Source of the DNA: Syntrophales bacterium
GTDB lineage: Bacteria > Desulfobacterota > Syntrophia > Syntrophales > UBA2210
DNA length: 64,000 bases
Direction: 5' to 3'
NCBI GenBank assembly: GCA_963662405.2
Contig: CAXXKT010000003.1
Span: forward strand, 128,001 to 192,000
The notes below the pieces were generated by a model. It saw only the letters and a list, made by a program, of their open reading frames with translations. It had not been told where the DNA came from and searched no databases. The translations under genes were made by a program, and so were the position numbers. Below are positions 1,203-20,097 of this stretch, one piece after another (the stretch's first letter is position 1; the number at the start of each line of letters is the position of its first letter).

Positions 1203-2273
1203 GTGCTATCTACACCTCAACAAGCTAAATTTGAAATCTTTTCGCATGGGCTTTCTGTTCACTCAACTGCCAATGATTTGTTACATGATCTTTGGAATGA
1301 TAGGCCATTATCATTAGTAGATTATACGACAACTTCAGGTTTGACTATTAGACTCGAAAATGATGTCTGGATCAATTCGCCATTATCCAGTTACAATAAA
1401 AATTTTGTTAAATCACCAAAATGGGAATTAGTTGTATCAAACGGGCATTTTTACATCGAATCATCATCTGCGCAACTTAAAGCAGAGCCGATATCAGTTC
1501 CCCAGTATTACAATAAAAAAAATCAATGGGGAGAGCCATATATAAAATATATTAAAACACATGCTGACCGTGCACGGATATCGCCGATCGAAGGTTGTAG
1601 TTATTCATGTCATTTCTGTAACTCCAGCTATAAAAATAAATACAAGAAAAAGAAGATCGAATTTATGATTGACGCCATTAATATGGCCCTGCACGATCCT
1701 TGGTTGCCTGCTCGTCATTTGTTAATATCTGGTGGAACCCCTTTTTTAAAGGATTATGGCTATTTGCAAGAAGTTTATTGTGCCGTCCCAAAAAAATTCC
1801 CAGACTTGGAAGTAGATGTGATGATGGTTCCAACTCCTGGTTTATTACAGTTTGAAGAGTTGAAAAATGGAGGTATTAAGGGAATCTCTATCAATATGGA
1901 AATCTACAATGACGATGTGGCAAAGAAAATTATGCCTCAAAAAGCATTGGAAACCCGTGAAGGGTTTCTAGGGCATCTTCATCATGCGGTGAAAATATTT
2001 TCTCAAGGTAAAGTAAGGTCTTTACTTTTGGTAGGACTTGAGCCGATTGAAGATACGCTAAAAGGAGTTGAAGCACTGGCAAGAATTGGTGTTGATCCTG
2101 TATTGAGTGCCTTTCGACCTGATCCTAATACCCCGCTTGGAAATTATCCTCCGCCATCAGTAGAATTTCAGAAAAATGTGTATTTGCGAAGCTTGGAAAT
2201 AGTTTGTAAGTATCCAGGAGTGAAGCTTGGTCCCCGATGCAAACCTTGCCAACATAATGCGATTGCCTTTTAA
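1203..2273 (+). CDS. Radical SAM protein of unknown function
   Basis: CxxxCxxC motif (CSYSCHFC), ISGG motif, extra C-terminal CKPC; AGGA upstream of the GTG start. Confidence 0.85.
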   Translation: MLSTPQQAKFEIFSHGLSVHSTANDLLHDLWNDRPLSLVDYTTTSGLTIRLENDVWINSPLSSYNKNFVKSPKWELVVSNGHFYIESSSAQLKAEPISVPQYYNKKNQWGEPYIKYIKTHADRARISPIEGCSYSCHFCNSSYKNKYKKKKIEFMIDAINMALHDPWLPARHLLISGGTPFLKDYGYLQEVYCAVPKKFPDLEVDVMMVPTPGLLQFEELKNGGIKGISINMEIYNDDVAKKIMPQKALETREGFLGHLHHAVKIFSQGKVRSLLLVGLEPIEDTLKGVEALARIGVDPVLSAFRPDPNTPLGNYPPPSVEFQKNVYLRSLEIVCKYPGVKLGPRCKPCQHNAIAF

Positions 2274-2369
2274 TTCTGGCTTTGTCCATGAAAAGTAGTG
2301 GCAGTCCGCTTTCTTTTTGGGGTACCCTGTCTTTTCTATAAAAATGGCGAGTATTCCTGAATTCTGTGG

Positions 2370-3305
2370 TCAAACAGCAAGTCTGAACTTTTCATATCTC
2401 CGTTCTAATAGATTGGGGTCGGGCCAGGCGTTTGAGGATCGTGGGAGTATGATTTTCTTCAGGTGCATTCCCTGGAGTCCATGGAGCAGCATGGGGCCGT
2501 CTTTTTCTTTCAGGATATCGTCTCGAACTTCGATGACGTAGTCGGGTCGTATCCCGATCATGAAACGGTCAAAGGCCGCATGGTGGAATTTGCAGAGGGC
2601 AACACCGTTATTCACAATGGGTTCACCGTCGGGCTCTCCATCAGGGATGATATGTGCCGCATCCAAAAGTTCCAGATGTTTGAGACGACAAAAAGCGCAC
2701 TGCTCCCGATATGCATGCAGCACCCGCTCGCGGAAGCCGCGTTGGTGTAATCTCTGTTTGACGGAGGTTGTGATATACAGTCTGCGGATGTCTGAATCCG
2801 TTTCCGAGATTGGCGGAGCGCAGTCTTCGGAATCAAAGTATTGATTCACTGTTTTATAATCATCAACGGCAACCGTGAACGTCAATTTCTTCGGATCATC
2901 TCCTACAATATATACAGGCCATGCGGCCAGATATTTGCCCGGCACAACGCTGTGGAAGTAAATGAGCGGAATATTGTGGAGCATAGCATTTCGAAGCCCT
3001 ACATTTGCACGGTGGCGTGGATTGGTCCCTCGATACCTGTATAAAAGGAGTCCTTCCGGTGTAAACCCATCATCATAGTGTCCGGATGTTGTTGTCGTAA
3101 TCGAAAGGGGATATTCGGGAAGTATCTTTGGCTTAAAAATGCCTTCTGGGGAAACGAGAGAAATTCGCTGATCTTCAAAAACAAATCCCTGCGCAAGGAT
3201 TGTTCTCTGAAGCACATCGCCGTGAAGGTTGACCTGTTCGGATAGCCACGCGAAAGCTGCAATGCGTAAACGCCTATCCAAGTCTTGTTCAAGATTGATG
3301 CGCAT
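2370..3305 (-). CDS. HNH endonuclease with N-terminal SRA/PUA-like domain (putative modification-dependent restriction enzyme)
   Basis: RLHQRGFRERVLHAYREQCAFC...LDAAHII...NGVALCKFHHAAFD HNH_2-type motif; N-terminal YDDG...YRYRG...N..LRNAM..NIPLIYF resembles SRA; alternative TTG start at 3317. Confidence 0.8.
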   Translation of the reverse strand: MRINLEQDLDRRLRIAAFAWLSEQVNLHGDVLQRTILAQGFVFEDQRISLVSPEGIFKPKILPEYPLSITTTTSGHYDDGFTPEGLLLYRYRGTNPRHRANVGLRNAMLHNIPLIYFHSVVPGKYLAAWPVYIVGDDPKKLTFTVAVDDYKTVNQYFDSEDCAPPISETDSDIRRLYITTSVKQRLHQRGFRERVLHAYREQCAFCRLKHLELLDAAHIIPDGEPDGEPIVNNGVALCKFHHAAFDRFMIGIRPDYVIEVRDDILKEKDGPMLLHGLQGMHLKKIILPRSSNAWPDPNLLERRYEKFRLAV

Positions 3306-3365
3306 ATAATCAATCAAGGTTTGTTATTGTTCATTTATAAAAAAGAGTTTTTCCATATTATCTTT

Positions 3366-5057
3366 TTATTTTCTAAGTCTTGCCTTTTTAGCTTTTACAA
3401 TAATTGATGCAAATCCAATGGCTTTTTCCAAACCATCTTCCTCTGCTGCATAACTTAAGAGTTGTTTTCCTATATCCTTTTCATTGAAACCATTCTTTAT
3501 TATGTGATCGGTTATTCTATCAAGGGTTCCTTGTTCAAGAGGCAAATTTGTTTGCGTTTGTTTTTGTGGTCTGGTAGGCCAAAAATGAGGTGTTTCATTG
3601 ATCAATACACCTTCGCTTTTCGTAAAAGTATCTTTTAGTTGCATGCTTTCATCCTCAATCCCATTTGGGGGCACACTTTGGGGGGATATGTTTGAAAGTT
3701 TCTCACGATGTTTTAACAAAAGTGTCTGGTTAAAAGAAGCTTTGTAAAAACGCCAATATTGGGAGCCCGTAGCATTTTTCTGTGTAATCGCTTCACCTAA
3801 TGGATTTATAATTCCCAAACCGTAAAGTGCTACTTCTTTATTGTTTAATTGTCCGACAAAATCAATTGTTGATTTTGGCAGATTCCAGTGCAAGAGGTCA
3901 GGGTAAAAAAACTGAGGCTTAGGTCTCCCACAACTGATCTCATATAGCCTTTCTGCCTGTGAAACAAGATAGTCATAATCGAGAACCCTCTGAGGAGGTT
4001 CACTGTTACTGTAGGTTCCTAATATTGCGCCAGCCATCGTTGCAATGGTATCGGTATCACTATCGAGAGTATTGGCACATATTTCTATGCCTTTCGCTGG
4101 ATCTCCTGAAAAGAAATAAGCGATGTAAGTGGCTAAAAGAGCGGTCTTAGTAGCTGATCCACGTTTTGCAGGATTAAATGCATCAATGTTTTCCGCTATT
4201 GAGCGATATCTTTCCTCTTTGTCCCTTTCTTCGCGAAGTAAACCAATCCCCGTTTCCTGCAATATCTTGTTGGTCGTTTTGATATCCCCCATCATCTCGT
4301 CGATAGTATCTTCTACGGCACTTTCCAATTTCGTTTGAGCTTGTTTTTCCCAAGAGGGAAGCCATATATGATTTAGAAGCTTATCTTCTTTGCAAACATT
4401 AACAATTAATTTTGCTTTAGTTAGAATCTTATCCCAAATATCTGGGGGAGGACACTCCCCTCCAATCAATGCCTGACGTAGAATCAAACCATGGAATACT
4501 GCACCTACCCAGCCGACAGGATGTCCATGGGTAATAATTGAATCTCTTATAATTTCTCTAATTAATGCTTCGTCTGATAAAGCACTTGACGCCGTCCATA
4601 CATGAGGCTGAATACGCATTGCAGCGCCATTACCTCCAACATCAGTATAACGATGTGTTGGGGTTTTAAAAAAGTTAGTATTCCACTGAACCGTCTTCTT
4701 TTTTAAAGATTCAGCCGCAGCTTTCGTACCTTTGCCCATCCCCAGACCATACGCAAGAAAGACGGGTATTTCAATTTTAGAAAACGTCTCAAAATCGAAT
4801 TCCCCATCTTTTCTTATGCTACGACATACTGCCAATCGTAACTGGGTATCATCCGAATAAACACCTTCCGGAAGTTCAATTGAAACACCGTATTGCCCTC
4901 CAAGCTTTCGCCTCCATCCAATAAGTCCTTTCACACGACCAAGTCCGCGTGTTCTATATTTAAGCCTTTTTACATCACTAAGCTCCGTGATAAACCCTAA
5001 GGCATCACCATATGCAGCCCAAAGCATTGAATTTTTAATTGATTCGAAAGTATTCAT
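3366..5057 (-). CDS. ADP-ribosylglycohydrolase (ARH/DraG family) with ~190-aa C-terminal extension
   Basis: AAYGDALG, YSDDTQL, GNGAAMRI, ITHGH, DTDTIATMAGAILG motifs. Confidence 0.9.
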   Translation of the reverse strand: MNTFESIKNSMLWAAYGDALGFITELSDVKRLKYRTRGLGRVKGLIGWRRKLGGQYGVSIELPEGVYSDDTQLRLAVCRSIRKDGEFDFETFSKIEIPVFLAYGLGMGKGTKAAAESLKKKTVQWNTNFFKTPTHRYTDVGGNGAAMRIQPHVWTASSALSDEALIREIIRDSIITHGHPVGWVGAVFHGLILRQALIGGECPPPDIWDKILTKAKLIVNVCKEDKLLNHIWLPSWEKQAQTKLESAVEDTIDEMMGDIKTTNKILQETGIGLLREERDKEERYRSIAENIDAFNPAKRGSATKTALLATYIAYFFSGDPAKGIEICANTLDSDTDTIATMAGAILGTYSNSEPPQRVLDYDYLVSQAERLYEISCGRPKPQFFYPDLLHWNLPKSTIDFVGQLNNKEVALYGLGIINPLGEAITQKNATGSQYWRFYKASFNQTLLLKHREKLSNISPQSVPPNGIEDESMQLKDTFTKSEGVLINETPHFWPTRPQKQTQTNLPLEQGTLDRITDHIIKNGFNEKDIGKQLLSYAAEEDGLEKAIGFASIIVKAKKARLRK

Positions 5058-5075
5058 TATTGCTCCCTGTTAATA

Positions 5076-5708
5076 TTAGAAAAGCTCTCTCCGTACTTCG
5101 CATTCTATATGGTTCCAATCCCTAAATAATGATTTTATACTGTCAAACGCATTGGCATCATCGTCATTTGCTACATAAGCCTTATTAAGGTAGCGTAGAG
5201 ATACTTCTCTCGGGTAAAGAACTTCTGCTTGATTACAAGTCGGTTGATTATCAGACAAAGATGCCGGACGAGTGATGCCGTTTCCATACCATTTGACTAT
5301 GTTTGGAGCAAACATTGCCTCCAGACCTACAGAGCCTTGATGGCGTTCAACACCACTATACATATTGTTCGTGGTGGTAAAGTATACGCCATCGTGCGCG
5401 CAAATTTCCGGAGAAAAAGATAGGATACACCACCACCCATCTTCACGCGCATGCCAGTTGCCGGCAGCAATTCCAAAAAGGTGGCGATTGACTGATGTAA
5501 TCGATAAATTTACATAATCCCACCATTCTTTATCTCTTTCTCGGTCCGCACAGTTATATTGATAGATATACTCGAGATAGTCATCTTCTGCTAGAAGGTT
5601 ACGAGCTTTCAAAGAACCAGTAGCCAAAATACCAGTAACACCTTTATTTGTTGTAAAATGAAGGATTTCTTTTATTTTCCGCTTTTTTATTATTTCTTGG
5701 ATAGTCAT
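5076..5708 (-). CDS. darT: DarT-family (DUF4433) DNA ADP-ribosyltransferase toxin
   Basis: LHFTT..GIL..GSL N-terminus, VNLSI, FTTTN, LEAMFA, PTCNQAEVL with the catalytic Glu. Confidence 0.8.
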   Translation of the reverse strand: MTIQEIIKKRKIKEILHFTTNKGVTGILATGSLKARNLLAEDDYLEYIYQYNCADRERDKEWWDYVNLSITSVNRHLFGIAAGNWHAREDGWWCILSFSPEICAHDGVYFTTTNNMYSGVERHQGSVGLEAMFAPNIVKWYGNGITRPASLSDNQPTCNQAEVLYPREVSLRYLNKAYVANDDDANAFDSIKSLFRDWNHIECEVRRELF

Positions 5709-7105
5709 AGTACAATATCGTTATAAGTATCTGTAGCCAAACAGTCAAGAAGGGAAGAGGGATCATCGGGCTTACACCCGAGAGTTACCGTCATGCGAGC
5801 TCTCGTTATTGTCATGGCAAGTAATCGTCTCAGATTTTCCCAAGAAGTATCACCATCTTCATCTCCATGTTGTGTAATTTCTTCATTCAATCCTAAAATG
5901 TATATGTGATCAAATTCCAATCCCTTTGCCGAATGCATGCTAATTAAGGCGACATTGTCATGCCCTTGAGGCCACTCTGACTGTCGGGTCAATTCGACAA
6001 AATTGAGTCCGTTTTTAGTTAAATCTGTGCGAAGCGTCTTAAACCATCCCCCAGCCTTGGGGTGAACAAATGCAACGGACTCTTCGTCAAGGTTAATATG
6101 TTTAATTTCTGAAATAACATAGGTACACTGTTCTGAATACCTGCCTCTAAGCAGTTTCGGCTTTGATCCATTGCGAAAGCACGAATCCAAATCTGGGATT
6201 GTACCATCGTCACTTAATTCCAAGCCCTCTAATAGCGGCTTTGCCAATCGACAGATTTCGATGGTGTTGCGGTGATTTTCTTCAAGACGAAAGCTGCGAT
6301 TGGGGTTTAATGTAATACCAACTTCACGCCAGGTCCAACCCCTCGGATAGATCTGCTGTGCCTTATCTAGAACAAATACCATCGTACACGGATCAGCAGC
6401 GTGTTGCTTAACAGCACGTATCTGGTTTGCAGAGAAATCTTGTGTTTCATCTGCAATAATAATATCGTATCTTATATTCTTCGGCGAATTGATAAGTTCT
6501 AGTGCTAAATCATTCCAGTCTCGGATTGCTTCCTCTTGTTTAAATTTTTCATAAGGTACTATTATTTCATTGACAAGGCGTTCTCTTGTTGCTTGTTCCA
6601 TTCGCGGCGTGATGCCACGTCCTTCCCGTTTAATGCTTAAGTATTTACCCCTATCATCAGGGTGGAATCGTCCCATACAGTATTCAACTTCGTCACACAA
6701 AAAATCTTCTGGCAGCCGCAACCCTTCATTGAACTCAATCAGCTTTTCCTTTTGCAGTCTATAGTCGATAATATTTTCTATACGTGTCAAATCCTTAGAC
6801 CATTTCCCGAACGTAGAGACATTGATTTTTACTCGTGAATGTGTCGTAATTTGTTGTTGTGCAAGATGGGAGATGTATCCACGGAGAGTCCTGTTATACG
6901 TAAGCACAAGAATCTGAACAGGGTTAGGGTTATCATTTCTTTCACGGTGGCGGAGCCAGAACTCCGACAGTTGCTTAAGCATCAGGAGTGCTGTAGTGGT
7001 TTTACCAGATCCGGCAGCACCGCGAATTACAGTAACACCTGCTTGGGGATTCGAAATAATAGGTAATTGTTCCGCAGTCGGAGGAACGTCAACTAGTACT
7101 TTCAT
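5705..7105 (-). CDS. Superfamily 1 (UvrD/Rep-like) helicase
   Basis: GAAGSGKT Walker A, LTYN motif Ia, DETQD Walker B, ENHRNT, HSAKGLEFD, ITRAR; ATGA overlap with the darT start. Confidence 0.9.
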   Translation of the reverse strand: MKVLVDVPPTAEQLPIISNPQAGVTVIRGAAGSGKTTTALLMLKQLSEFWLRHRERNDNPNPVQILVLTYNRTLRGYISHLAQQQITTHSRVKINVSTFGKWSKDLTRIENIIDYRLQKEKLIEFNEGLRLPEDFLCDEVEYCMGRFHPDDRGKYLSIKREGRGITPRMEQATRERLVNEIIVPYEKFKQEEAIRDWNDLALELINSPKNIRYDIIIADETQDFSANQIRAVKQHAADPCTMVFVLDKAQQIYPRGWTWREVGITLNPNRSFRLEENHRNTIEICRLAKPLLEGLELSDDGTIPDLDSCFRNGSKPKLLRGRYSEQCTYVISEIKHINLDEESVAFVHPKAGGWFKTLRTDLTKNGLNFVELTRQSEWPQGHDNVALISMHSAKGLEFDHIYILGLNEEITQHGDEDGDTSWENLRRLLAMTITRARMTVTLGCKPDDPSSLLDCLATDTYNDIVL

Positions 7106-7169
7106 TACATACTCCCACTCACATTTTTGGAGTTAGTTTTCTGCCATCTATCCGGTCTTTCAATACTCA

Positions 7170-7252
7170 AAACAAAAAACCCCGCTATCTCCTCTCAAGA
7201 AACGGGGTTTTGCATTCAATCACTACACGGTACTCTCCTGTGTCGGGTGTAG
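7170..7252 (-). promoter_or_regulatory. Conserved leader element copy A (hairpin, SD-GTG-TAG-TGA, intrinsic terminator) upstream of the helicase operon
   Basis: Stem CTACAC/GTGTAG around CAGGAG; terminator AAAACCCCG..CGGGGTTTTTT; TTGACA at 7318-7323 on the minus strand; resembles copies at 9101 and 50861. Confidence 0.55.
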
Positions 7253-7376
7253 ATGAAACATTTCAAACTTTTGAAAGAATCTGAACAGTTAGGGTAAAAT
7301 ACACCCTGAGACAAAAATGTCAAGTAATTTCGTTGTGAAGCTTAATGTGTAAAAAATATATAATCCATGGCCCGAT

Positions 7377-8774
7377 CTATTGATACTCCCCCATAAATTT
7401 TCTGTACTCCGGGTGTTCGACGAGCAGGCGGCCGCCGACTTCGATGAGTTTGTCGACTTGTGTTTCGCTGAGGTTGAACGATGTGGGGAGGTTGTTGAAA
7501 TATTCCTTTTCCTGTTCGTCGGCAAGGTTGTTGAAGCAGAGATCGGCGACGTAGAGTTTCAGGTTGCCTCCCGCGAGAGGTTTTATTTTGAAACCGTCGG
7601 TGCTGTGCCGGTCGAGGAGGTTCTGACAGGCGGTGGAGTATTGCTGGGCCTTGATCCGTTCGCCCATCGTCTCTTTGAACATCTCCACGGTCTCGAAGGA
7701 GTAGTTGTCCATGGAGACGGTGGCCGTCTTGAATCCCACCTTTGCCAGTCCCGGCGGGCTCTCTTTCCGGTCGCAGTTCTCGCGTTTCTCCGTCTTCGCG
7801 TTGACGACGATGACGAGGAGGCGCTTGATCTTCCCGTTGTTGATCTTCTGGCGGATATCGCTCCGCACGTACAGGTCGTAGATCGCCCGGAGGCCGAGGT
7901 TGTCGGCGAGCCCCCCGTCCATCAGGTGGAGCCAGGGGTGCGCCTCCCGGTCCGCGTAGATGGTGTTGTTGTATGCCGCCCAGTAGCGGCGCTGGTTGAC
8001 CCAGTAGTCCCGGAGGGCGAGGGTGTCTTCCGTATCGGGTGCGCAATCCGCGGCGCCGCAGTAGTTCGCGAGGCTGATGGGGGAGAGGAGAAAGGGAAAG
8101 GCGGATGACGCGGCGACGGCCCGGGCGACGGGGTAGGTGAGAAGGTCGGACCCGATGTAGTGGAACTGGCGGCCGGTGAATTCGAAACGGGCGCCGGTGG
8201 AGAGGTTGGTCGCGTTCATGATCAGGAAGGGGCGCGCGGCCTTTTCGGCCAGCGCGGCGAAGGTCCGGGATTGGAAGATGGTGTCGTTGTACAGTTCGGC
8301 GGCCAGGTCGATCCGGCTGAAGTACGGGGAGGCGAGGCGGACCCAGTTGTAGGGATTGGTGAGTTTGAGGAAGAGTTCCCGTTCGATGTTCCGGTTGAGG
8401 AATCTCTCCTCGAAATCGTCAAAGATCCGTTCCCCGAAGAGAGCGTAGTAGGCCCCCGTGAAGGACCCGCCGGAGACGGTGGATATGACGTCGACCTCGT
8501 CCAGGAGCGACCGGCCGTCGGGGAGGCGGATCTCCCGCATCTTCCTGAGGACGCCGTAGGAGAGGGCGGCCGCGCGGGTGCCGCCGCCGGAGAAGGTGAG
8601 GATGACGAAGGTCTCGTCGGCGTCGGCGGGTTCGGTGAAGCGGTCGAAGGCGTACGGGGCGGCCGGTTCGGGTTGCGTGAGGGGCTCGTTGAGCGGGTAG
8701 TGGGCGCAGCCGCACAGAACGACAACCGCGACAACCGCAAGGGCGAGACGGATGGTATGATTATACCTTTTCAT
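7377..8774 (-). CDS. Patatin-like phospholipase, predicted lipoprotein
   Basis: Signal peptide with LCGC lipobox; SGGGTRAA, STVSGGS nucleophile elbow, DGG motif. Confidence 0.88.
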   Translation of the reverse strand: MKRYNHTIRLALAVVAVVVLCGCAHYPLNEPLTQPEPAAPYAFDRFTEPADADETFVILTFSGGGTRAAALSYGVLRKMREIRLPDGRSLLDEVDVISTVSGGSFTGAYYALFGERIFDDFEERFLNRNIERELFLKLTNPYNWVRLASPYFSRIDLAAELYNDTIFQSRTFAALAEKAARPFLIMNATNLSTGARFEFTGRQFHYIGSDLLTYPVARAVAASSAFPFLLSPISLANYCGAADCAPDTEDTLALRDYWVNQRRYWAAYNNTIYADREAHPWLHLMDGGLADNLGLRAIYDLYVRSDIRQKINNGKIKRLLVIVVNAKTEKRENCDRKESPPGLAKVGFKTATVSMDNYSFETVEMFKETMGERIKAQQYSTACQNLLDRHSTDGFKIKPLAGGNLKLYVADLCFNNLADEQEKEYFNNLPTSFNLSETQVDKLIEVGGRLLVEHPEYRKFMGEYQ

Positions 8775-8979
8775 AACGCACCTCTTTGGGTGAGAGGGCA
8801 GTGGTCTCTTCGAGAATGATGAGGACCTCTTCCTCCGGCCGGAAATCGTATGGTGGCACCTGGAGGGTGACGAGATGGCTCCCTCCCTCCACCTCGATCA
8901 CCTCATTGGTCTTGCCCTGGGGTGTTTTGTCGATCATGACCTGCCGGTCGTCTTCGAACGTGACGATGAGATATTCCAT
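8761..8979 (-). CDS. Small acidic beta-rich (PEGA-like) protein, 72 aa
   Basis: MEYLIVTFEDDRQVMIDKTPQGKTNEVIEVEGGSHLVTL; AAGGAGG RBS; overlaps the patatin start. Confidence 0.6.
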   Translation of the reverse strand: MEYLIVTFEDDRQVMIDKTPQGKTNEVIEVEGGSHLVTLQVPPYDFRPEEEVLIILEETTALSPKEVRYEKV

Positions 8980-9100
8980 GACTGTCCCCTCCTTGTGTCC
9001 CGGCCATTCGGACATCCCCCTGATGTCCGACGGCGGTTTTCTCTGGGTAAGCGTTGAAGAGGCGTGCGGCGGCGCGTTTTCCTGAAAATCGGATCGCCCC

Positions 9101-9180
9101 AAACAAAAAAGCCCTCATTCCTCACGATCGAGAAACAGGGCTTTCGATGATCAGACCATAACCCCTCCTGGTTTACGGCT
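9101..9180 (-). promoter_or_regulatory. Conserved leader element copy B (hairpin, SD-ATG-GTC-TGA, terminator)
   Basis: Stem GCCGTAA/TTATGGT around CAGGAGG; terminator AAAGCCCT..AGGGCTTTTTT; TTGACA at 9238-9243 on the minus strand. Confidence 0.6.
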
Positions 9181-9254
9181 GTTCACAAATGCGTCTACAT
9201 TTCAGATTATAACTTTATGCCATAAAATAAACAGGATTGTCAATACTTACGCGA

Positions 9255-9341
9255 TAAATAGGGACAGCGCCCATTTTTCACTTTCCTCACAAAACGATAT
9301 TTTATTCAACCATTTACAAAAATGGGCGCTGTCCCTATTTA
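9255..9341. repeat. REPIN-like element 1 (24-bp perfect inverted arms, 39-bp spacer)
   Basis: TAAATAGGGACAGCGCCCATTTTT ... AAAAATGGGCGCTGTCCCTATTTA. Confidence 0.9.
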
Positions 9342-9512
9342 CCGGAAGCTTGCTTTTCCGATTTTTCTATAGTAGTTCACGTTTCGTGTTATTCGGTCAT
9401 AGAAAATCGCTTCCGCACAAGCACCCGAAGGGATACGATAATGCCCGGCAAATCGTGCTTCCAGTGAACAGCGAAAGACTCCTGAAAACAACCGTACAAC
9501 AAAAATAATTCT

Positions 9513-14903: not shown

Positions 14904-15379
14904 GTATTTTTCCTTTCTGCGCATTCCGTGAGCCATGCGCGGCACGGCCGGTAATCCGATCCGTGGGCGGTCCGTCGGCAGTCTTTGTGTGGTAAGAATA
15001 ATCCGTGGCAGTGATTTGTGCGACGCACAACACGCAGTGAGACATATAAATAACGGTTCTCAAACTGTCAATACAATATATCGAAAAAGGCATAGAATTT
15101 TCGATATCTGCTCCTCTGTGCTTTCGGTGAGAGGGAAGAGAGACTGTCCCTGTGTTCACGGAATGAATCATTCATATGTTTTTAAATTAATTTTGACAGA
15201 GAACCCATATTGTGTCAGACAAAGCATGCATTTTTGTTGAACGCCGATACATCTTTTCGGCATGAGAAATACCGCGATAGTGATAACAAGCGATAACGCG
15301 CTTTCCGTGAGGGAGAGGGAACAGGACTCGGCCCTTTTTCTTTTCCTGTTTATTTGATTTCCATTTCGGAGGTTTCGGT

Positions 15380-16228
15380 ATGAACGGAAACAAAATTCTT
15401 CCACTGTTTTTATTTGTCTGTTTTTCACTTATCCTTTCTTTTGTAATGATCCCGTCGCCTGTGCGTGGGGCCGTGGGAGATCTGACCATCAGCACCCCCG
15501 CGGCGAACCCGTCGCAGGGTTCCACCTTTACGTCGGAGATCACCGTGGATGTGGGCACTCGGGTTGTCGGGGCTTACGACGTGGTTTTCACCTTCAACAG
15601 GAATGTCCTGCAGATCCAGACCGTAGGAGCAGGGGCGCCGGAGTTGGGGACTCCAGTTGACAGTGGTATTGCGGCGGCAAACACGAACGGATGGATTCTC
15701 GTGAACGCGCTGAATGCGGCCAGTCTTACTGCTCCCACGGGGATCGTGGACTTATTCAGCATCACCTTTCAGGTCGTCGGTGCGCCGGGCACCACCAGCA
15801 CACTCCAGGTAGCGATAACCAGTTTTTGGGATGTCAATTTCAGCGATATTCCGTGCACACCGATCGATTCCCAGGTCACGGTCGCATCCCCACCGATCGT
15901 TGTCAGCTTCACGGCGACCCCCTCGTCGATCACCGCCGGGGAAACCGCAACCCTCGCGTGGAACGTGACGGGCGCGACAACCGTGACTATCGGCCCCGGT
16001 ATCGGTACGGTGGACCCTTCCGGCGGGACAACAGTCGTGTCTCCCGCCGCCACGACAACCTACACCCTGACGGCGACCAACGCCGAAGGTTCGGTAACCG
16101 CTCACGCGACGGTGATCGTCATAGAGACAGTTCCCACCCTGAACCGATGGGGGATGATCCTCATGGGATTGGCTGTGGTGTGTATCGCATTCCTGACGGT
16201 GAGGAAACGGGACGCGACGACCGCCTAG
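15380..16228 (+). CDS. Cohesin-domain surface protein with IPTL-CTERM sorting signal
   Basis: Signal peptide; cohesin-like GAYDVVFTFN..LFSITF; Ig-like SFTATPSSITAG; C-terminal VPTLNRWG-TM-RKR. Confidence 0.75.
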   Translation: MNGNKILPLFLFVCFSLILSFVMIPSPVRGAVGDLTISTPAANPSQGSTFTSEITVDVGTRVVGAYDVVFTFNRNVLQIQTVGAGAPELGTPVDSGIAAANTNGWILVNALNAASLTAPTGIVDLFSITFQVVGAPGTTSTLQVAITSFWDVNFSDIPCTPIDSQVTVASPPIVVSFTATPSSITAGETATLAWNVTGATTVTIGPGIGTVDPSGGTTVVSPAATTTYTLTATNAEGSVTAHATVIVIETVPTLNRWGMILMGLAVVCIAFLTVRKRDATTA

Positions 16229-16310
16229 ATGAAAATTCTCGTTGTACTGGTCTGTTCGTTTTGTTATGTTTCCCGGGCTTTTCTCTATCTCGTATCCACA
16301 GGAGCCACTT

Positions 16311-17696
16311 ATGCTGATTGATCATACTATTGTTGTCATCTATCTGCTGGCGATTCTGGTTATGGGACTCCTGTCGGGGCGTGGGGTCAAGACGCTGAAC
16401 CAATTCTCCGTCTACAAACGCTCGTACGGTTCGATGGTCATTTTCGCCACGCTGGCCGCCTCCTTTATCGGCGGCGGTTTTTCCATGGGCAATGCCGGCA
16501 AGGTGTACGCCATCGGCATTATCTCCGTGGTTGGTCTGTGGGGATTCAGCCTGAAGGAGCTCCTGGTGGCCGCCTTTATCGCGCCGCGGGTGCAGGGTTT
16601 CCGGGATTGCATCTCCGTGGGCGATGTGATGGAGATCAACTACGGCAAATCCGGGCGGATCATTACCGGCGTGCTGGGACTGCTGGTCTGTATGGGCATC
16701 ACCGGGGCGCAGGTGGGCGCCATGGGGGCGGTATTCGAACAATTCACGGGTATGTCGCGCAACGTGGGTATCCTGGCCGGCTGTGGTATCGTGATCGCCT
16801 ACACCACGGCCGGGGGGATGCGCGCCGTGGTACGGACCGATGTTATCCAGTTTTTCCTGCTTGCCGTGGGCATACCGCTCATGCTCTTTCTGGGGCTGCA
16901 GGAAGTAGGCGGGATTGACGGATTGCAGGCCAGGGTCCCTGCCTCTCACCTCTCGCTGTCCAACGTCCATATGACGCCGATGATGGTCTTTTCGCTGTTT
17001 CTGTCGTTCATGATCGGAGAAACACTGGTCCCACCGTATCTGCAACGGCTGTTGCTCGGTAAAGACGCCCGTGCCACGGCGGAAGGCACGCTTTACAGCG
17101 CGCTCTTTTCCATCCCGTTCTTCGCGGTCACGGGGTTGATCGGGCTGGTGGCGTTGGCATTGACCCCGGACCTGCAGGGCAACGCGCCTATGCCCTACGT
17201 GGTGCAGCACATTCTGCCGGTGGGGCTGCGCGGGCTTGTCATCGCCGGCATCATATCCATTGTCATGTCTTCGGCCGACTCATTCCTCAACTCGTCATCC
17301 GTGACGCTGGTGAACGATGTCATCAAACCGCTTTCGTCGCGGCCGATCAGCGATCGTGCCGGCCTGATCCTCGCCCGCGTCACCACACTGGTGGTGGGGG
17401 TCGGATCGGTCTGGTTTGCACTGCGCATTGAAAACGTGCTTGATATTCTTTTGTTTTCATATAATTTCTGGGCGCCGGTGGTGCTGGTGCCGATGGCGGC
17501 CACCCTGCTGGGGGTCAAGGCGCGCCCCAAGACGTTTCTGGCGGGCGCCTTCTGCGGCGTGGTGACACTCGTCATCTGGCATTGGTTCCTGAAGGATCCC
17601 GGCGGTGTCGACGGGCTGGTCATCGGCGTGCTGGCCAACCTGGTTGCCTTTGCCTCCATGCATCATATCGACCGCACGGTAACAACACTAAAATAG
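16311..17696 (+). CDS. Sodium:solute symporter (SSS) family protein
   Basis: ASFIGGG, YTTAGGMRAVVRTD, MSSADSFLNS motifs; stop codon lies inside a REP arm. Confidence 0.88.
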   Translation: MLIDHTIVVIYLLAILVMGLLSGRGVKTLNQFSVYKRSYGSMVIFATLAASFIGGGFSMGNAGKVYAIGIISVVGLWGFSLKELLVAAFIAPRVQGFRDCISVGDVMEINYGKSGRIITGVLGLLVCMGITGAQVGAMGAVFEQFTGMSRNVGILAGCGIVIAYTTAGGMRAVVRTDVIQFFLLAVGIPLMLFLGLQEVGGIDGLQARVPASHLSLSNVHMTPMMVFSLFLSFMIGETLVPPYLQRLLLGKDARATAEGTLYSALFSIPFFAVTGLIGLVALALTPDLQGNAPMPYVVQHILPVGLRGLVIAGIISIVMSSADSFLNSSSVTLVNDVIKPLSSRPISDRAGLILARVTTLVVGVGSVWFALRIENVLDILLFSYNFWAPVVLVPMAATLLGVKARPKTFLAGAFCGVVTLVIWHWFLKDPGGVDGLVIGVLANLVAFASMHHIDRTVTTLK

Positions 17697-17709
17697 GGAC
17701 AGCGCCCAT

Positions 17710-18372
17710 TTATTGCTTGCGGGGTCTTCCCCGAGGGCGGACACTGAGCGACCTTCCCAGAAGCGCCTCAATATCCTTTCTGAATTTTTCATCCCCGCAG
17801 GGCCTGCCTGACAGGGCACTTGTCCTTAATCGTTCGACGACTTCCGGTGATTCGGTATCACTGAGATACCGGGACCAGTCATCAATCTCGTCACAGAGAT
17901 GACAGGTCTTCGAAAGAATGTTATCCGAGGTGACCCCGCAGTGGCCACGAGCGCTCGACCAGGGATAGTCTTCGGGGGCGTGGACTGCTCCCGCGCGTAC
18001 CGGGTTGTTTTCTACGTAACGGATCGCAGCGTAAAGATGCCTTTCGTCAAGAATACTGGAATAAAATCGCCCCTGCCAGAGGTATCCGGTTATCCCCTTC
18101 TTGCGGTTGTAATACTGCGAGTATCGCATATGGAGGGTATTGAGGGTCCGGGCAAGTGAATCGTCCTTCCGGGGGACGCACACAAAATGAACATGATTGT
18201 TCATTAAGCAGTACGCCCAGATCTCCAGGGAATATTTCTCCGCGTATTCCTTGAGCCATGCGAGGTATTGACGGTAGTCCGTATCCGATTCAAAGACGGT
18301 CTGCCGGTAGTTTCCCCGCTGGGTTACATGGTACGGATAATCTCTGGCAATGATTCTCGCGACTCGTGGCAT
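17710..18372 (-). CDS. REP-associated tyrosine transposase (RAYT/TnpA-REP, Y1 HUH)
   Basis: MPRVAR, YHVTQRGN, YCLMNNHVH (HUH), LWQGRF, RYVENNPVRAG, YPWSS, C-terminal RGRPRK. Confidence 0.92.
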   Translation of the reverse strand: MPRVARIIARDYPYHVTQRGNYRQTVFESDTDYRQYLAWLKEYAEKYSLEIWAYCLMNNHVHFVCVPRKDDSLARTLNTLHMRYSQYYNRKKGITGYLWQGRFYSSILDERHLYAAIRYVENNPVRAGAVHAPEDYPWSSARGHCGVTSDNILSKTCHLCDEIDDWSRYLSDTESPEVVERLRTSALSGRPCGDEKFRKDIEALLGRSLSVRPRGRPRKQ

Positions 18373-18379
18373 GATGTAA

Positions 18380-18408
18380 AGTCTATGACATGACTCTCAA
18401 GCTGTCAA
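18380..18408 (-). promoter_or_regulatory. Sigma70-type promoter of the RAYT gene
   Basis: TTGACA-17 bp-TAGACT, 7 nt before the ATG. Confidence 0.6.
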
Positions 18409-18448
18409 TGAAAAATGGGCGCTGTCCCTATTTAAGGCCTCTTTTCTC

Positions 18449-18477
18449 TTGACAATCCTGTTTTGGGTCACTATATT
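18449..18477 (+). promoter_or_regulatory. Sigma70-type promoter of arsR
   Basis: TTGACA-17 bp-TATATT. Confidence 0.6.
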
Positions 18478-18504
18478 CCAAAAAGACGATATGGAGGCAT
18501 GAGG

Positions 18505-18849
18505 ATGAAGACATTTCTGAAGGTGATGAAGGCACTCTCCGATCCGAGCCGTGTCAGGATCATGAAGATGCTGCAGAAACGGGTCATGTGTGTCTGCGAG
18601 ATCACGGTGGGCCTGGGAGTCGCCCAGTCCACGGCCAGCAAGCACCTGAAGATCCTGGAGGATGCCGGTCTGATTACTTCCTATAAGGAGGGCCTGTGGG
18701 TCAACTACGCATTGGCGGACGGCGAGGCGAGCCCCTACGCGGCATCGCTCATCGGCAATCTGAAGCACTGGCTGGAGGATGATCCCGGCATTGCCGAACT
18801 GGCGCTCCGACTGCCCTTGATTCACCGGGAGGAGATCTGCGGGAAGTAG
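18505..18849 (+). CDS. arsR: ArsR/SmtB family transcriptional regulator
   Basis: KALSDPSRVRI, MCVCEI, QSTASKHLKILEDAGL; GGAGG RBS. Confidence 0.9.
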   Translation: MKTFLKVMKALSDPSRVRIMKMLQKRVMCVCEITVGLGVAQSTASKHLKILEDAGLITSYKEGLWVNYALADGEASPYAASLIGNLKHWLEDDPGIAELALRLPLIHREEICGK

Positions 18850-18924
18850 GGGCTTTTTTTGTCTTGACTATATCGATATATCGCGAAATATAAAATTGGG
18901 GCATAACACGAGGGATCTGTTTTG

Positions 18925-20097
18925 ATGAAAGAACGCACCAAATTACTCATAATAGCCGCGGTCTTTCTGGCGGCCTATTACATCCCGTGGGATCATCCGT
19001 TGATCCGGCAGTCGGGACTGGAGGCCTTCATGATGCTCCGCGAGTACGCCCGCGAGCACGTCCTGACCTGTCTGATCCCCGCCTTCTTCATCGCGGGGGC
19101 GATCGCCGTCTTCGTCTCGCAGGCCTCGGTCCTGAAATATTTCGGCGCCCAGGCGAGCAAGATCCTCTCCTATTCAGTGGCCTCGGTCTCCGGCTCCATA
19201 CTGGCGGTCTGTTCCTGCACCGTCCTGCCCCTCTTTGCCGGGATCTACACCCGGGGGGCGGGGATCGGTCCGGCAACGGCATTCCTCTATTCGGGACCGG
19301 CGATCAACATCCTGGCGATCACCCTGACGGCGAAGGTCCTGGGCTGGGAGATGGGACTGGCACGCGCGATCGGCGCCATCATCTTTGCCGTTATCACCGG
19401 TCTCCTGATGGCGATGATCTTCCGAAAGGACGACGCGGCGCGGACCACCGGCCAGATCTATGTCCCGGACAGTGATGACGGCGGGCGCACCCTCCTGCAA
19501 GACACCCTGTATCTTGTGACGATGGTCCTGGTCCTGATCTTCGCCTCTTTCGCCCGCCCCGCCGAAGGGGCGGCGGGTGTGTGGTCGCTGATCTTCGCGT
19601 ACAAGTGGTATATCACCGCTGTCCTCCTGGCCGTCCTGGCCTGGATGGTGACGGCCTGGTTCCGAAAGGATGAGCGCGTCGCCTGGGTGGATTCGACCTG
19701 GGGCTTCATGAAGCAGATATTTCCCTTCCTGATCGGAGGCGTCCTGGTGGCCGGGTTCCTCCTGGGGAGGCCGGGGCATCCGGCCCTGATCCCGGAGGAG
19801 TGGGTCCAGTCGCTCCTCGGGGGGAATTCGTTGTGGGCGAACCTCTTCGCCTCGGTGGCGGGGGCGCTCATGTATTTCGCGACGCTGACGGAGATCCCGA
19901 TCCTGCAGGGGCTCCTGGGTGCCGGGATGGGGAAGGGGCCCGCCCTGGCCCTGCTCCTGGCCGGTCCAGCCCTGTCGCTACCGAACATGCTGGTGATCGG
20001 GAGCGTCATGGGGGTTAAGAAAACGGCCACCTTCTGCGGGATTATTATCATTATGTCGACAATCGTGGGGCTGCTGTACGGCGCCCTCGTCGGATGA
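18925..20097 (+). CDS. ArsP/DUF318 permease
   Basis: AVCSCTVLP, FLYSGPAIN, MYFATLTE, LLAGPALSLP. Confidence 0.85.
   Translation: MKERTKLLIIAAVFLAAYYIPWDHPLIRQSGLEAFMMLREYAREHVLTCLIPAFFIAGAIAVFVSQASVLKYFGAQASKILSYSVASVSGSILAVCSCTVLPLFAGIYTRGAGIGPATAFLYSGPAINILAITLTAKVLGWEMGLARAIGAIIFAVITGLLMAMIFRKDDAARTTGQIYVPDSDDGGRTLLQDTLYLVTMVLVLIFASFARPAEGAAGVWSLIFAYKWYITAVLLAVLAWMVTAWFRKDERVAWVDSTWGFMKQIFPFLIGGVLVAGFLLGRPGHPALIPEEWVQSLLGGNSLWANLFASVAGALMYFATLTEIPILQGLLGAGMGKGPALALLLAGPALSLPNMLVIGSVMGVKKTATFCGIIIIMSTIVGLLYGALVG

Follow-up and report, generated by a model that had tools for sequence, protein, structure and literature searches.

Analysis of a 64,000-nucleotide stretch of the genome of a Syntrophales bacterium (GCA_963662405.2, contig CAXXKT010000003.1, positions 128,001 to 192,000; here called the window) revealed a three-gene operon on the minus strand at positions 3366 to 7105, encoding a UvrD-like helicase without a 2B domain (DarH), a transferase of the DarT family, and a hydrolase of the ADP-ribosylglycohydrolase (ARH) fold (DarG3). 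As judged from the sequence, the operon likely belongs to the already named DarHTG system and does not represent a new one. We estimate a probability of about 0.85 that this trio, with its DarT1-like transferase, works as a toxin-antitoxin (TA)-type abortive-infection defence against phages, since the three proteins are full-length homologues of an Escherichia coli trio that fits the published DarHTG. The locus is thus a distant, intact member (36 to 43% identity) of a defence family tested so far in one E. coli representative, and comparative data characterize this family as a tightly conserved three-gene unit found in about ten phyla. Newly described here are the position of its DarT clade on the DarT1 side of the family, the C-terminal module of DarG3, and further ARH-linked DarT lineages.

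DarHTG (Liu-DS3, consisting of DarH, DarT, and DarG3) was published on 8 April 2026 as an anti-phage defence system of E. coli (Nucleic Acids Res. 2026;54:gkag308; PMC13069673). In the description given there, the helicase DarH is UvrD-like and devoid of a 2B domain, and DarG3 is unlike DarG1 and DarG2 and resembles archaeal and eukaryotic ADP-ribosylglycohydrolases. Infection of E. coli MG1655 carrying the system is described to result in culture collapse with T7 and in retarded growth with T4, T5, and SSL_2009a. Defence was reported to require the active site of DarT and the ATP site of the helicase, and a DarG3 mutant could not be constructed (PMC13069673). According to the same description, the frequency of DarHTG among E. 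coli genomes is below 0.5%, and the system is most common in Thermodesulfobacteriota and Bacteroidota.

Using the DNA of an enterobacterial member of our locus set (described below) as query, we found a corresponding trio in 21 of 5,426 complete E. coli genomes (0.39%), and this was the only such trio found in E. coli. All three window proteins align with their E. coli homologues over the full length, with 41% identity for DarH (E = 8e-128), 43% for DarT (E = 1e-56), and 36% for DarG3 (E = 8e-120). The gene order helicase-DarT-ARH is the same in the window, in 78 of 80 related loci, and in E. coli. Furthermore, the locus shares with DarHTG a UvrD-like helicase without 2B domain and with intact ATP-binding motifs (K35, D219, and E220 conserved), a DarT-family transferase with its catalytic glutamate (E162), and an ARH-like antitoxin that is neither a macrodomain nor a NADAR protein and whose structural model has MJ1187, ARH3, and ARH1 as top matches. 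It differs from the described system in its GC-rich host and in the 36 to 43% identity. The original prediction had regarded the trio as a distinct defence system. The assignment to defence is supported, as the homologous E. coli trio fits a phage-defence system shown by experiment (PMC13069673), but its distinctness fell with the match to DarHTG, an outcome that the original prediction had itself listed as refuting.

In our literature search, DarHTG or DarG3 in this sense was found in PMC13069673 alone. A search for DarT paired with an ADP-ribosylglycohydrolase, or for further types of DarT or DarTG, returned nothing relevant. In 2012, de Souza and Aravind reportedly described DarT-like transferases encoded beside MACRO or ADP-ribosylglycohydrolase genes. 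PADLOC v2.0.0 (2023) contains no model for the ARH partner and matches the window DarT weakly (2.6e-7), so that this library would not call the system. In RefSeq, the DarH homologue of the E. coli locus (NZ_CP021722.1, positions 6001 to 7398 of the extracted region) is labelled as a 3'-5' exonuclease, which masks its identity as a helicase. The same locus is flanked by insertion sequence elements, an integrase, and a gene for a P-loop NTPase of 1,300 amino acids.

In the window, the three open reading frames (ORFs) are arranged head to tail on the minus strand and are translated without internal stops. The first, darH (7105..5705, 466 amino acids), encodes a UvrD-like superfamily 1 (SF1) helicase with Pfam matches to the UvrD-helicase N domain (E = 5.9e-11) and UvrD_C (E = 1.6e-10). 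It is followed by darT (5708..5076, 210 amino acids; PF14487, E = 3.5e-22), which encodes the predicted toxin, and by darG3 (5057..3366, 563 amino acids), which encodes the predicted antitoxin with an ADP_ribosyl_GH domain (PF03747, E = 2.2e-35) at residues 11 to 349 and a C-terminal extension visible in the AlphaFold2 model. The translations contain the motifs GAAGSGKTT, NLSITSVNRHLF, PTCNQAEVL, YSDDT, and DSDTDT. The stop codon of darH and the start codon of darT overlap by 4 bp (ATGA in the sequence ctATGAct, 5705..5708, minus strand), which would couple the translation of both genes. The spacer of 18 nucleotides between darT and darG3 (5058..5075, minus strand) carries a ribosome-binding-like GGGAG motif ahead of the ATG. 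Upstream of darH, the promoter-like sequence TTGACA-16-TATTTT (7323-7296, minus strand) is followed by a terminator-like hairpin with a U-run (7169..7212, minus strand; minimum free energy -24.6 kcal/mol, z = -4.0 versus shuffled sequences) that lies about 60 nucleotides ahead of the darH start codon (ATG at 7105). This hairpin could serve to terminate transcription of the upstream patatin-like gene, or it could act as a leader or attenuator of the operon. A scan of positions 2000 to 9500 against Rfam (E ≤ 0.1) revealed no RNA family.

The GC content is 0.39 to 0.43 over positions 3000 to 7500 versus 0.59 to 0.63 at 7500 to 9000, and the operon lies within an AT-rich island of about 12 kb, which extends from around position 15000 of the adjoining upstream stretch to around position 7400 of the window and also carries SIR2-like, nSTAND1, radical SAM, and HNH genes. 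No tRNA gene was found at either edge of the island, and its integration site was therefore not identified. The source genome (3.8 Mb, 100% complete) contains a single DarT gene and shows no match to NADAR (PF08719, PF22397) in the whole genome; its sole Macro match is an ORF of 185 amino acids (159 bits) on another contig with no adjoining DarT gene. The tight coupling of three genes in an AT-rich island, the apparently intact catalytic motifs, and the lack of a recognisable macrodomain or NADAR gene in the window had all been proposed from the sequence of the window, and each of these points was borne out, with the quoted motifs present and the residues nearly invariant among relatives.

To assess the conservation of the trio, a DarT profile was built from 23 relatives and searched in contigs representing one genome per species. 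The protein collection holds more than 1,400 DarT relatives, and among the matches listed, 120 show at least 51% identity. The best 80 of 124 candidates encoding a DarT relative made up the locus set. In searches with the three window proteins (tblastn), 78 of these 80 loci showed helicase, DarT, and ARH genes with unchanged order and orientation; the two exceptions stop at a contig edge, one upstream (L007) and one downstream (L034). The loci are spread over about ten phyla, including Thermodesulfobacteriota, Planctomycetota, Victivallales, Alpha-, Beta-, and Gammaproteobacteria, Actinomycetota, Acidobacteriota, Bacteroidota, Chloroflexota, Myxococcota, and Vulcanimicrobiota. The closest relative was found in a metagenome-assembled genome of the Desulfocapsaceae (65, 63, and 54% identity for the three proteins). 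The ATGA overlap of 4 bp between the helicase and DarT genes is present in 57 of the 77 loci in which both frames could be called.

Examination of the nearest flanking ORF on each side (n = 142) yielded no recurrent fourth gene and no Macro or NADAR gene (0/142). About 15 of these ORFs encode integrases, transposases, resolvases, or other mobile-element proteins, and about 20 belong to defence or TA families (HEPN-NTase, WYL, HNH, KAP NTPase, BrxA, ApeA, SIR2, Eco57I, SNF2, ImmA/IrrE, and Gp49). The trio is a conserved, mobile unit. A chance juxtaposition of three genes was ruled out by the synteny in 78 of 80 loci, and a fourth conserved gene by the variable flanks. The residue counts given below indicate purifying selection on the catalytic residues of DarH, DarT, and DarG3. 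Some loci contain unusually long frames, namely, an ARH frame of 1,079 amino acids in Syntrophorhabdus (L042, 7646-10882), ARH frames of about 700 amino acids in L015 and L066, and a helicase frame of 1,199 amino acids in L070 (3306-6905). These may be fusions or frames with mis-called starts.

Alignment of DarH with E. coli UvrD matched residues 13 to 294 to UvrD 14 to 299 and residues 382 to 442 to UvrD 551 to 612. Between both blocks, DarH has 87 residues versus about 250 in UvrD, and since about 165 amino acids, corresponding to the 2B region, are missing, DarH appears to have lost the 2B domain. The Walker A lysine K35 is found in 71 of 72 relatives, and D219, E220, and Q222 of the DExQ motif as well as R279 and R435 (motifs IV and VI) are found in all 72. 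The best PADLOC matches of DarH were the NERD+UvrD and GajB models; both were weak and partial.

The only solved relative found for the window DarT is DarT1 of E. coli C7 (8baq), which was matched by the protein at E = 2e-12 and by the family profile at E = 1.3e-16; DarT2 chains in the PDB gave no match at E ≤ 1. Based on the residue roles described for DarT1 (PMC11543638), the window DarT retains H17, F18, and T19 and the phosphate-binding arginine (R36). R52 and D54 of DarT1 correspond to the adjacent R58 and D59, S63 to S69, F72 to F78, the base-coordinating N104 to N114, Q150 to Q160, and the catalytic E152, which is mutated in 8baq, to E162. H17, S69, N114, and E162 are present in all 80 relatives, position 58 is occupied by K (51/80) or R (22/80) in 73 of them, and D59 is kept in 71.

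For a survey of DarT partners, 401 genomes of the window's phylum were sampled, and 34 contained DarT. In the scanned loci (nine fetched loci were outside this partner scan), the partner was a Macro protein in 17 cases, NADAR, as in DarT1 systems, in one (L111), and ARH in two (L107 and L109). A tree of 39 rows was calculated, comprising the window DarT, 22 of 79 DarH-linked, 13 Macro-linked, and one NADAR-linked DarT, and L107 and L109. The DarH-linked DarTs (support 98/96) and the Macro-linked DarTs (99/94) each form a clade, and the DarH-linked side of the tree also includes the single row linked to NADAR and both of the remaining ones linked to ARH. L109, L111, and L107 are on long branches, and their exact placement is unsure. 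The plasmid collection yielded eight DarT matches, too few for labelling the tree. Together, these sequence comparisons support a position of the window DarT on the DarT1 side, probably as a sister group and not as a member of DarT1. The DarT1-like character noted in the original prediction thus holds for the closest structure (8baq) and the side of the tree, but probably not for membership, and DarT1 residues K74 and Y75 cannot be aligned.

The AlphaFold2 model of DarG3, obtained from an alignment of 45 homologues (mean predicted local distance difference test [pLDDT] score, 90.8; predicted template modelling score, 0.82), is divided into four parts, all encoded on the minus strand. The ARH catalytic domain (residues 1 to 375; 3933..5057), supported by PF03747 and Foldseek, is followed by a six-stranded all-beta domain (residues ~398 to 457; 3687..3866; strands with pLDDT >90), a disordered linker of variable length (residues ~467 to 506; 3540..3659; pLDDT <50), and a C-terminal three-helix bundle (residues 512 to 562; 3372..3524; helices 512-521, 526-536, and 542-562 with pLDDT >90). 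Foldseek top matches of the ARH domain are MJ1187 (1t5j, E = 6.9e-10), ARH3, ARH1, DraG, and two immunity proteins of ARH type that act against ADP-ribosyltransferase toxins (6drh, 8za7). Of the metal-binding motifs, YSDDT aligns with YTDDT and DSDTDT with GDTDT of ARH3, and the metal-binding and catalytic residues of the domain are almost invariant (D18, D70, and D336 in 77/77 relatives; E25, D69, and D334 in 76/77).

The beta domain shares the conserved motif YPDL..W..P...D / GLG / W.W / FGQ, and the helix bundle the motif LD..T...I.SGF....IG with an invariant G530; the linker is gap-rich and unconserved across the 45 homologues. Structure searches with the C-terminal region gave no match in the PDB at E ≤ 0.001 (Foldseek) and no usable match in the ESM Atlas, and a wide VIA-align search with a C-terminal model of 184 amino acids returned nothing beyond unspecific helical bundles (best Z, 6.6) and was scarcely a test of the beta domain. 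A profile of the C-terminal module (~185 amino acids) detected 574 cluster representatives among 1.84 billion, with the module C-terminal in all of them. Among 23 scanned carriers, the ARH domain is complete or truncated at its N terminus in 20, and the other three lack any Pfam match. As far as seen, the module appears to be confined to DarG3-type ARH proteins.

From these features, the following mechanism can be proposed. With NAD+ as substrate, DarT would attach ADP-ribose to a base of single-stranded DNA (ssDNA) and thereby block replication of the phage and eventually of the host. Guanine is the predicted target, given that the window DarT falls on the DarT1 side of the family and has retained the catalytic residues of DarT1 (H17, K/R58-D59, S69, F78, N114, Q160, and E162). 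Another base is possible, since the loop carrying the readers of guanine O6 and N7 is not alignable. By our own chemical reasoning, N2 is the favoured atom, as its linkage in ADP-ribosyl-guanine resembles that of ADP-ribosyl-arginine, the substrate class of ARH1 and DraG. In uninfected cells, the two-metal ARH site of DarG3 would strip the adduct, and its lineage-specific C-terminal module may additionally tether or block DarT or DarH. DarH, whose SF1 motor is probably uninhibited because it is naturally 2B-less, would unwind DNA and supply ssDNA to DarT, or it would sense phage replication intermediates. Erasure of DNA ADP-ribosylation by the ARH and a helicase that senses replication or provides ssDNA had been put forward in the original prediction, and both are proposals here as well as in PMC13069673. 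Insight into the choice of base, the ARH chemistry, the binding partner of the C-terminal module, and the need for a 2B-less motor would show in what way the toxin and the DNA motor work together.

Several observations weigh against this interpretation. Identity to the tested E. coli system is only 36 to 43%; furthermore, we infer the equivalence of the E. coli trio with Liu-DS3 from architecture, host species, and frequency as given in the description of the paper. ARH-fold removal of ADP-ribose from a DNA or RNA base is without a demonstrated example: in the published assays, ADP-ribose on guanosine was removed by NADARs but by no other family, including the ARH enzymes tested (PMC11833690), and ARH1 and ARH3 are described as inactive on thymidine-linked ADP-ribose in DNA (PMC12879935). 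Within DarT, the equivalent of R52 is a lysine in 51 of 80 relatives, and the guanine readers K74 and Y75 (O6/N7) have no alignable counterpart, with a 4-residue insertion in the loop of this clade. Apparent decay, in which the frame of the helicase, DarT, or ARH is shortened or split, is seen in seven of the 80 relatives (L033, L035, L039, L047, L052, L057, and L071), so the trio is not always maintained. Finally, no sigma-70-like site clearly fronts darH, and the best one precedes the terminator-like hairpin.

The ARH chemistry bears on two other explanations. DarG3 might neutralize DarT chiefly by binding, as a type II antitoxin, through its beta domain or helix bundle, with another or no role for the ARH site. 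The conserved C-terminal module of about 185 amino acids, its restriction to DarG3-type ARH proteins, and the different C termini of more distant DarT-linked ARHs are consistent with such a binding function, and there is a parallel in DarG2, whose C-terminal domain binds DarT2. Neutralization by binding would also agree with the published data, in which no ARH is known to cleave base-linked ADP-ribose (PMC11833690, PMC12879935). However, conservation of the metal-binding and catalytic residues in 76 to 77 of 77 relatives argues for an active enzyme, and binding and enzymatic modes are not mutually exclusive; we regard neutralization chiefly by binding as unlikely. The second explanation is that DarT modifies protein or RNA instead of DNA and that the ARH reverses arginine-, serine-, or phosphate-end-linked ADP-ribose. 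This would fit the characterized ARH substrates, which according to PMC11833690 and PMC12879935 are protein side chains and nucleic-acid phosphate ends, as well as the toxin-immunity pairs of an ADP-ribosyltransferase (ART) and an ARH (6drh, 8za7) among the structural neighbours of DarG3. Yet every DarT characterized in the literature summarized in PMC11543638 acts on ssDNA bases, the base-coordinating asparagine (N104 in DarT1) is kept in 80 of 80 relatives, and an obligatory DNA-helicase partner fits a DNA substrate. A protein or RNA target is considered very improbable.

The degraded loci and the unclear promoter, together with the position in a horizontally acquired island, would be expected if the trio were chiefly an addiction module stabilizing the AT-rich island, or silent, and conferred no meaningful phage defence in this host. 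Against this stand the three frames and all catalytic residues, which are intact here, the reported activity of the E. coli homologue against four phages (PMC13069673), and the abundance of defence genes in the flanks of other loci. We give such a role little credence and favour abortive-infection defence by the trio.

Comparison with other known systems further delimits the operon. DarTG1, consisting of DarT1 and a NADAR antitoxin (E. coli C7, 8baq), provides the closest solved DarT, shares the N terminus and catalytic set with the window DarT (H17, F18, T19, R36, S69, F78, N114, Q160, and E162), and is represented on the same side of the tree by one NADAR-linked row on a long branch. In contrast to DarTG1, the window DarT is accompanied by an ARH antitoxin and an obligatory helicase, and NADAR is missing from the whole genome; moreover, the guanine-reading loop is not conserved in the window DarT, and the DarH-linked DarTs form a clade of their own (98/96). 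DarTG2, in which DarT2 modifies thymidine in ssDNA and is paired with a macrodomain DarG, follows the same principle, in that the toxin DarT is counteracted by a downstream-encoded antitoxin that removes ADP-ribose, and is often found in defence islands. It differs in that Macro-linked DarTs form a separate clade (99/94), no DarT2 chain was matched at E ≤ 1, the antitoxin has another fold, a helicase is lacking, and no Macro gene adjoins the window DarT.

ART-ARH pairs and DraT-DraG (Tre1-Tri1, 6drh; the Listeria pair, 8za7; DraG, 2woc) resemble the trio in that an ARH-fold enzyme, structurally a neighbour of DarG3, undoes the modification introduced by its partner transferase, but their transferases belong to other ART families and have protein targets, and these systems contain neither a helicase nor a DarG3-type C-terminal module. 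Gabija GajB and other UvrD-like helicases are SF1 motors that also serve as defence components. In Gabija, however, the partner is the OLD-type nuclease GajA and not DarT plus ARH, and PADLOC scans of the trio and the island genes gave no GajA match. DarH, with 466 amino acids, is also much shorter than the Gabija and NERD models (about 500 to 640 amino acids).

Besides the DarH-linked clade, we found at least two further lineages of ARH-linked DarTs. The ARH partners of two more distant DarTs have a core 30 to 31% identical to DarG3 and unrelated C termini. One locus (L114, 4489-8346; G166:C1) represents a second, distant helicase-DarT-ARH lineage with 28 to 31% identity to the trio. It has the same 4-bp overlap between the helicase and DarT genes, the C terminus of its ARH is unrelated to that in the window, and its DarT clusters, by way of long branches, with the DarT1 that is linked to NADAR. 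Another locus (L115, 6087-8922; G316:C3) encodes a DarT of 335 amino acids with a C-terminal extension and an ARH of 607 amino acids, whose core is 30% identical to DarG3 and whose C terminus is unrelated, and it contains no helicase gene. This pair is located directly 3' of hsdM/hsdS-like genes, represented by an ORF of 479 amino acids and an ORF of 534 amino acids with a type I restriction S-subunit domain. A more far-reaching hypothesis, which we advance tentatively and give slightly less than an even chance, is that DarG3 would be the first ARH-fold enzyme that strips ADP-ribose off a DNA base, with guanine N2 and its arginine-like linkage as the likeliest site, and that the trio is one branch of a wider, undescribed radiation of ARH-linked DarTs. 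Among its members would be helicase-less forms located within type I restriction loci as well as another lineage that carries a helicase, and the ARH of each would have a separate C-terminal adaptor. If true, base hydrolysis by DarG3 would extend ARH chemistry to nucleic-acid bases.

Further genes were identified around the operon. Upstream of darH, in GC-rich DNA directly outside the AT-rich island, a patatin-like phospholipase of 465 amino acids is encoded on the minus strand (7377-8774; PF01734, E = 3.8e-19). An HNH_2 endonuclease of 315 amino acids (2370-3317, minus strand; PADLOC HNH model PDLC04132, 2.6e-18) is encoded 3' of darG3 at a distance of 48 bp. Its association with the trio is not conserved, as it was found as a neighbour in only one of the 80 relatives (L011), there on the opposite strand. 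The same AT-rich island also contains five tightly packed genes on the plus strand, which extend from positions 15989-19999 of the adjoining upstream stretch (L084) into positions 1 to 2273 of the window. They encode a protein of 165 amino acids without a Pfam match, an ATP-grasp protein (286 amino acids), a SIR2_2 protein (600 amino acids), an nSTAND1 NTPase with pentapeptide repeats (about 677 amino acids, spanning the window edge), and a radical SAM protein (356 amino acids) with a weak match to the PADLOC pVip model (3e-4). No PADLOC system fits these five genes, which makes them a candidate for an undescribed defence operon.

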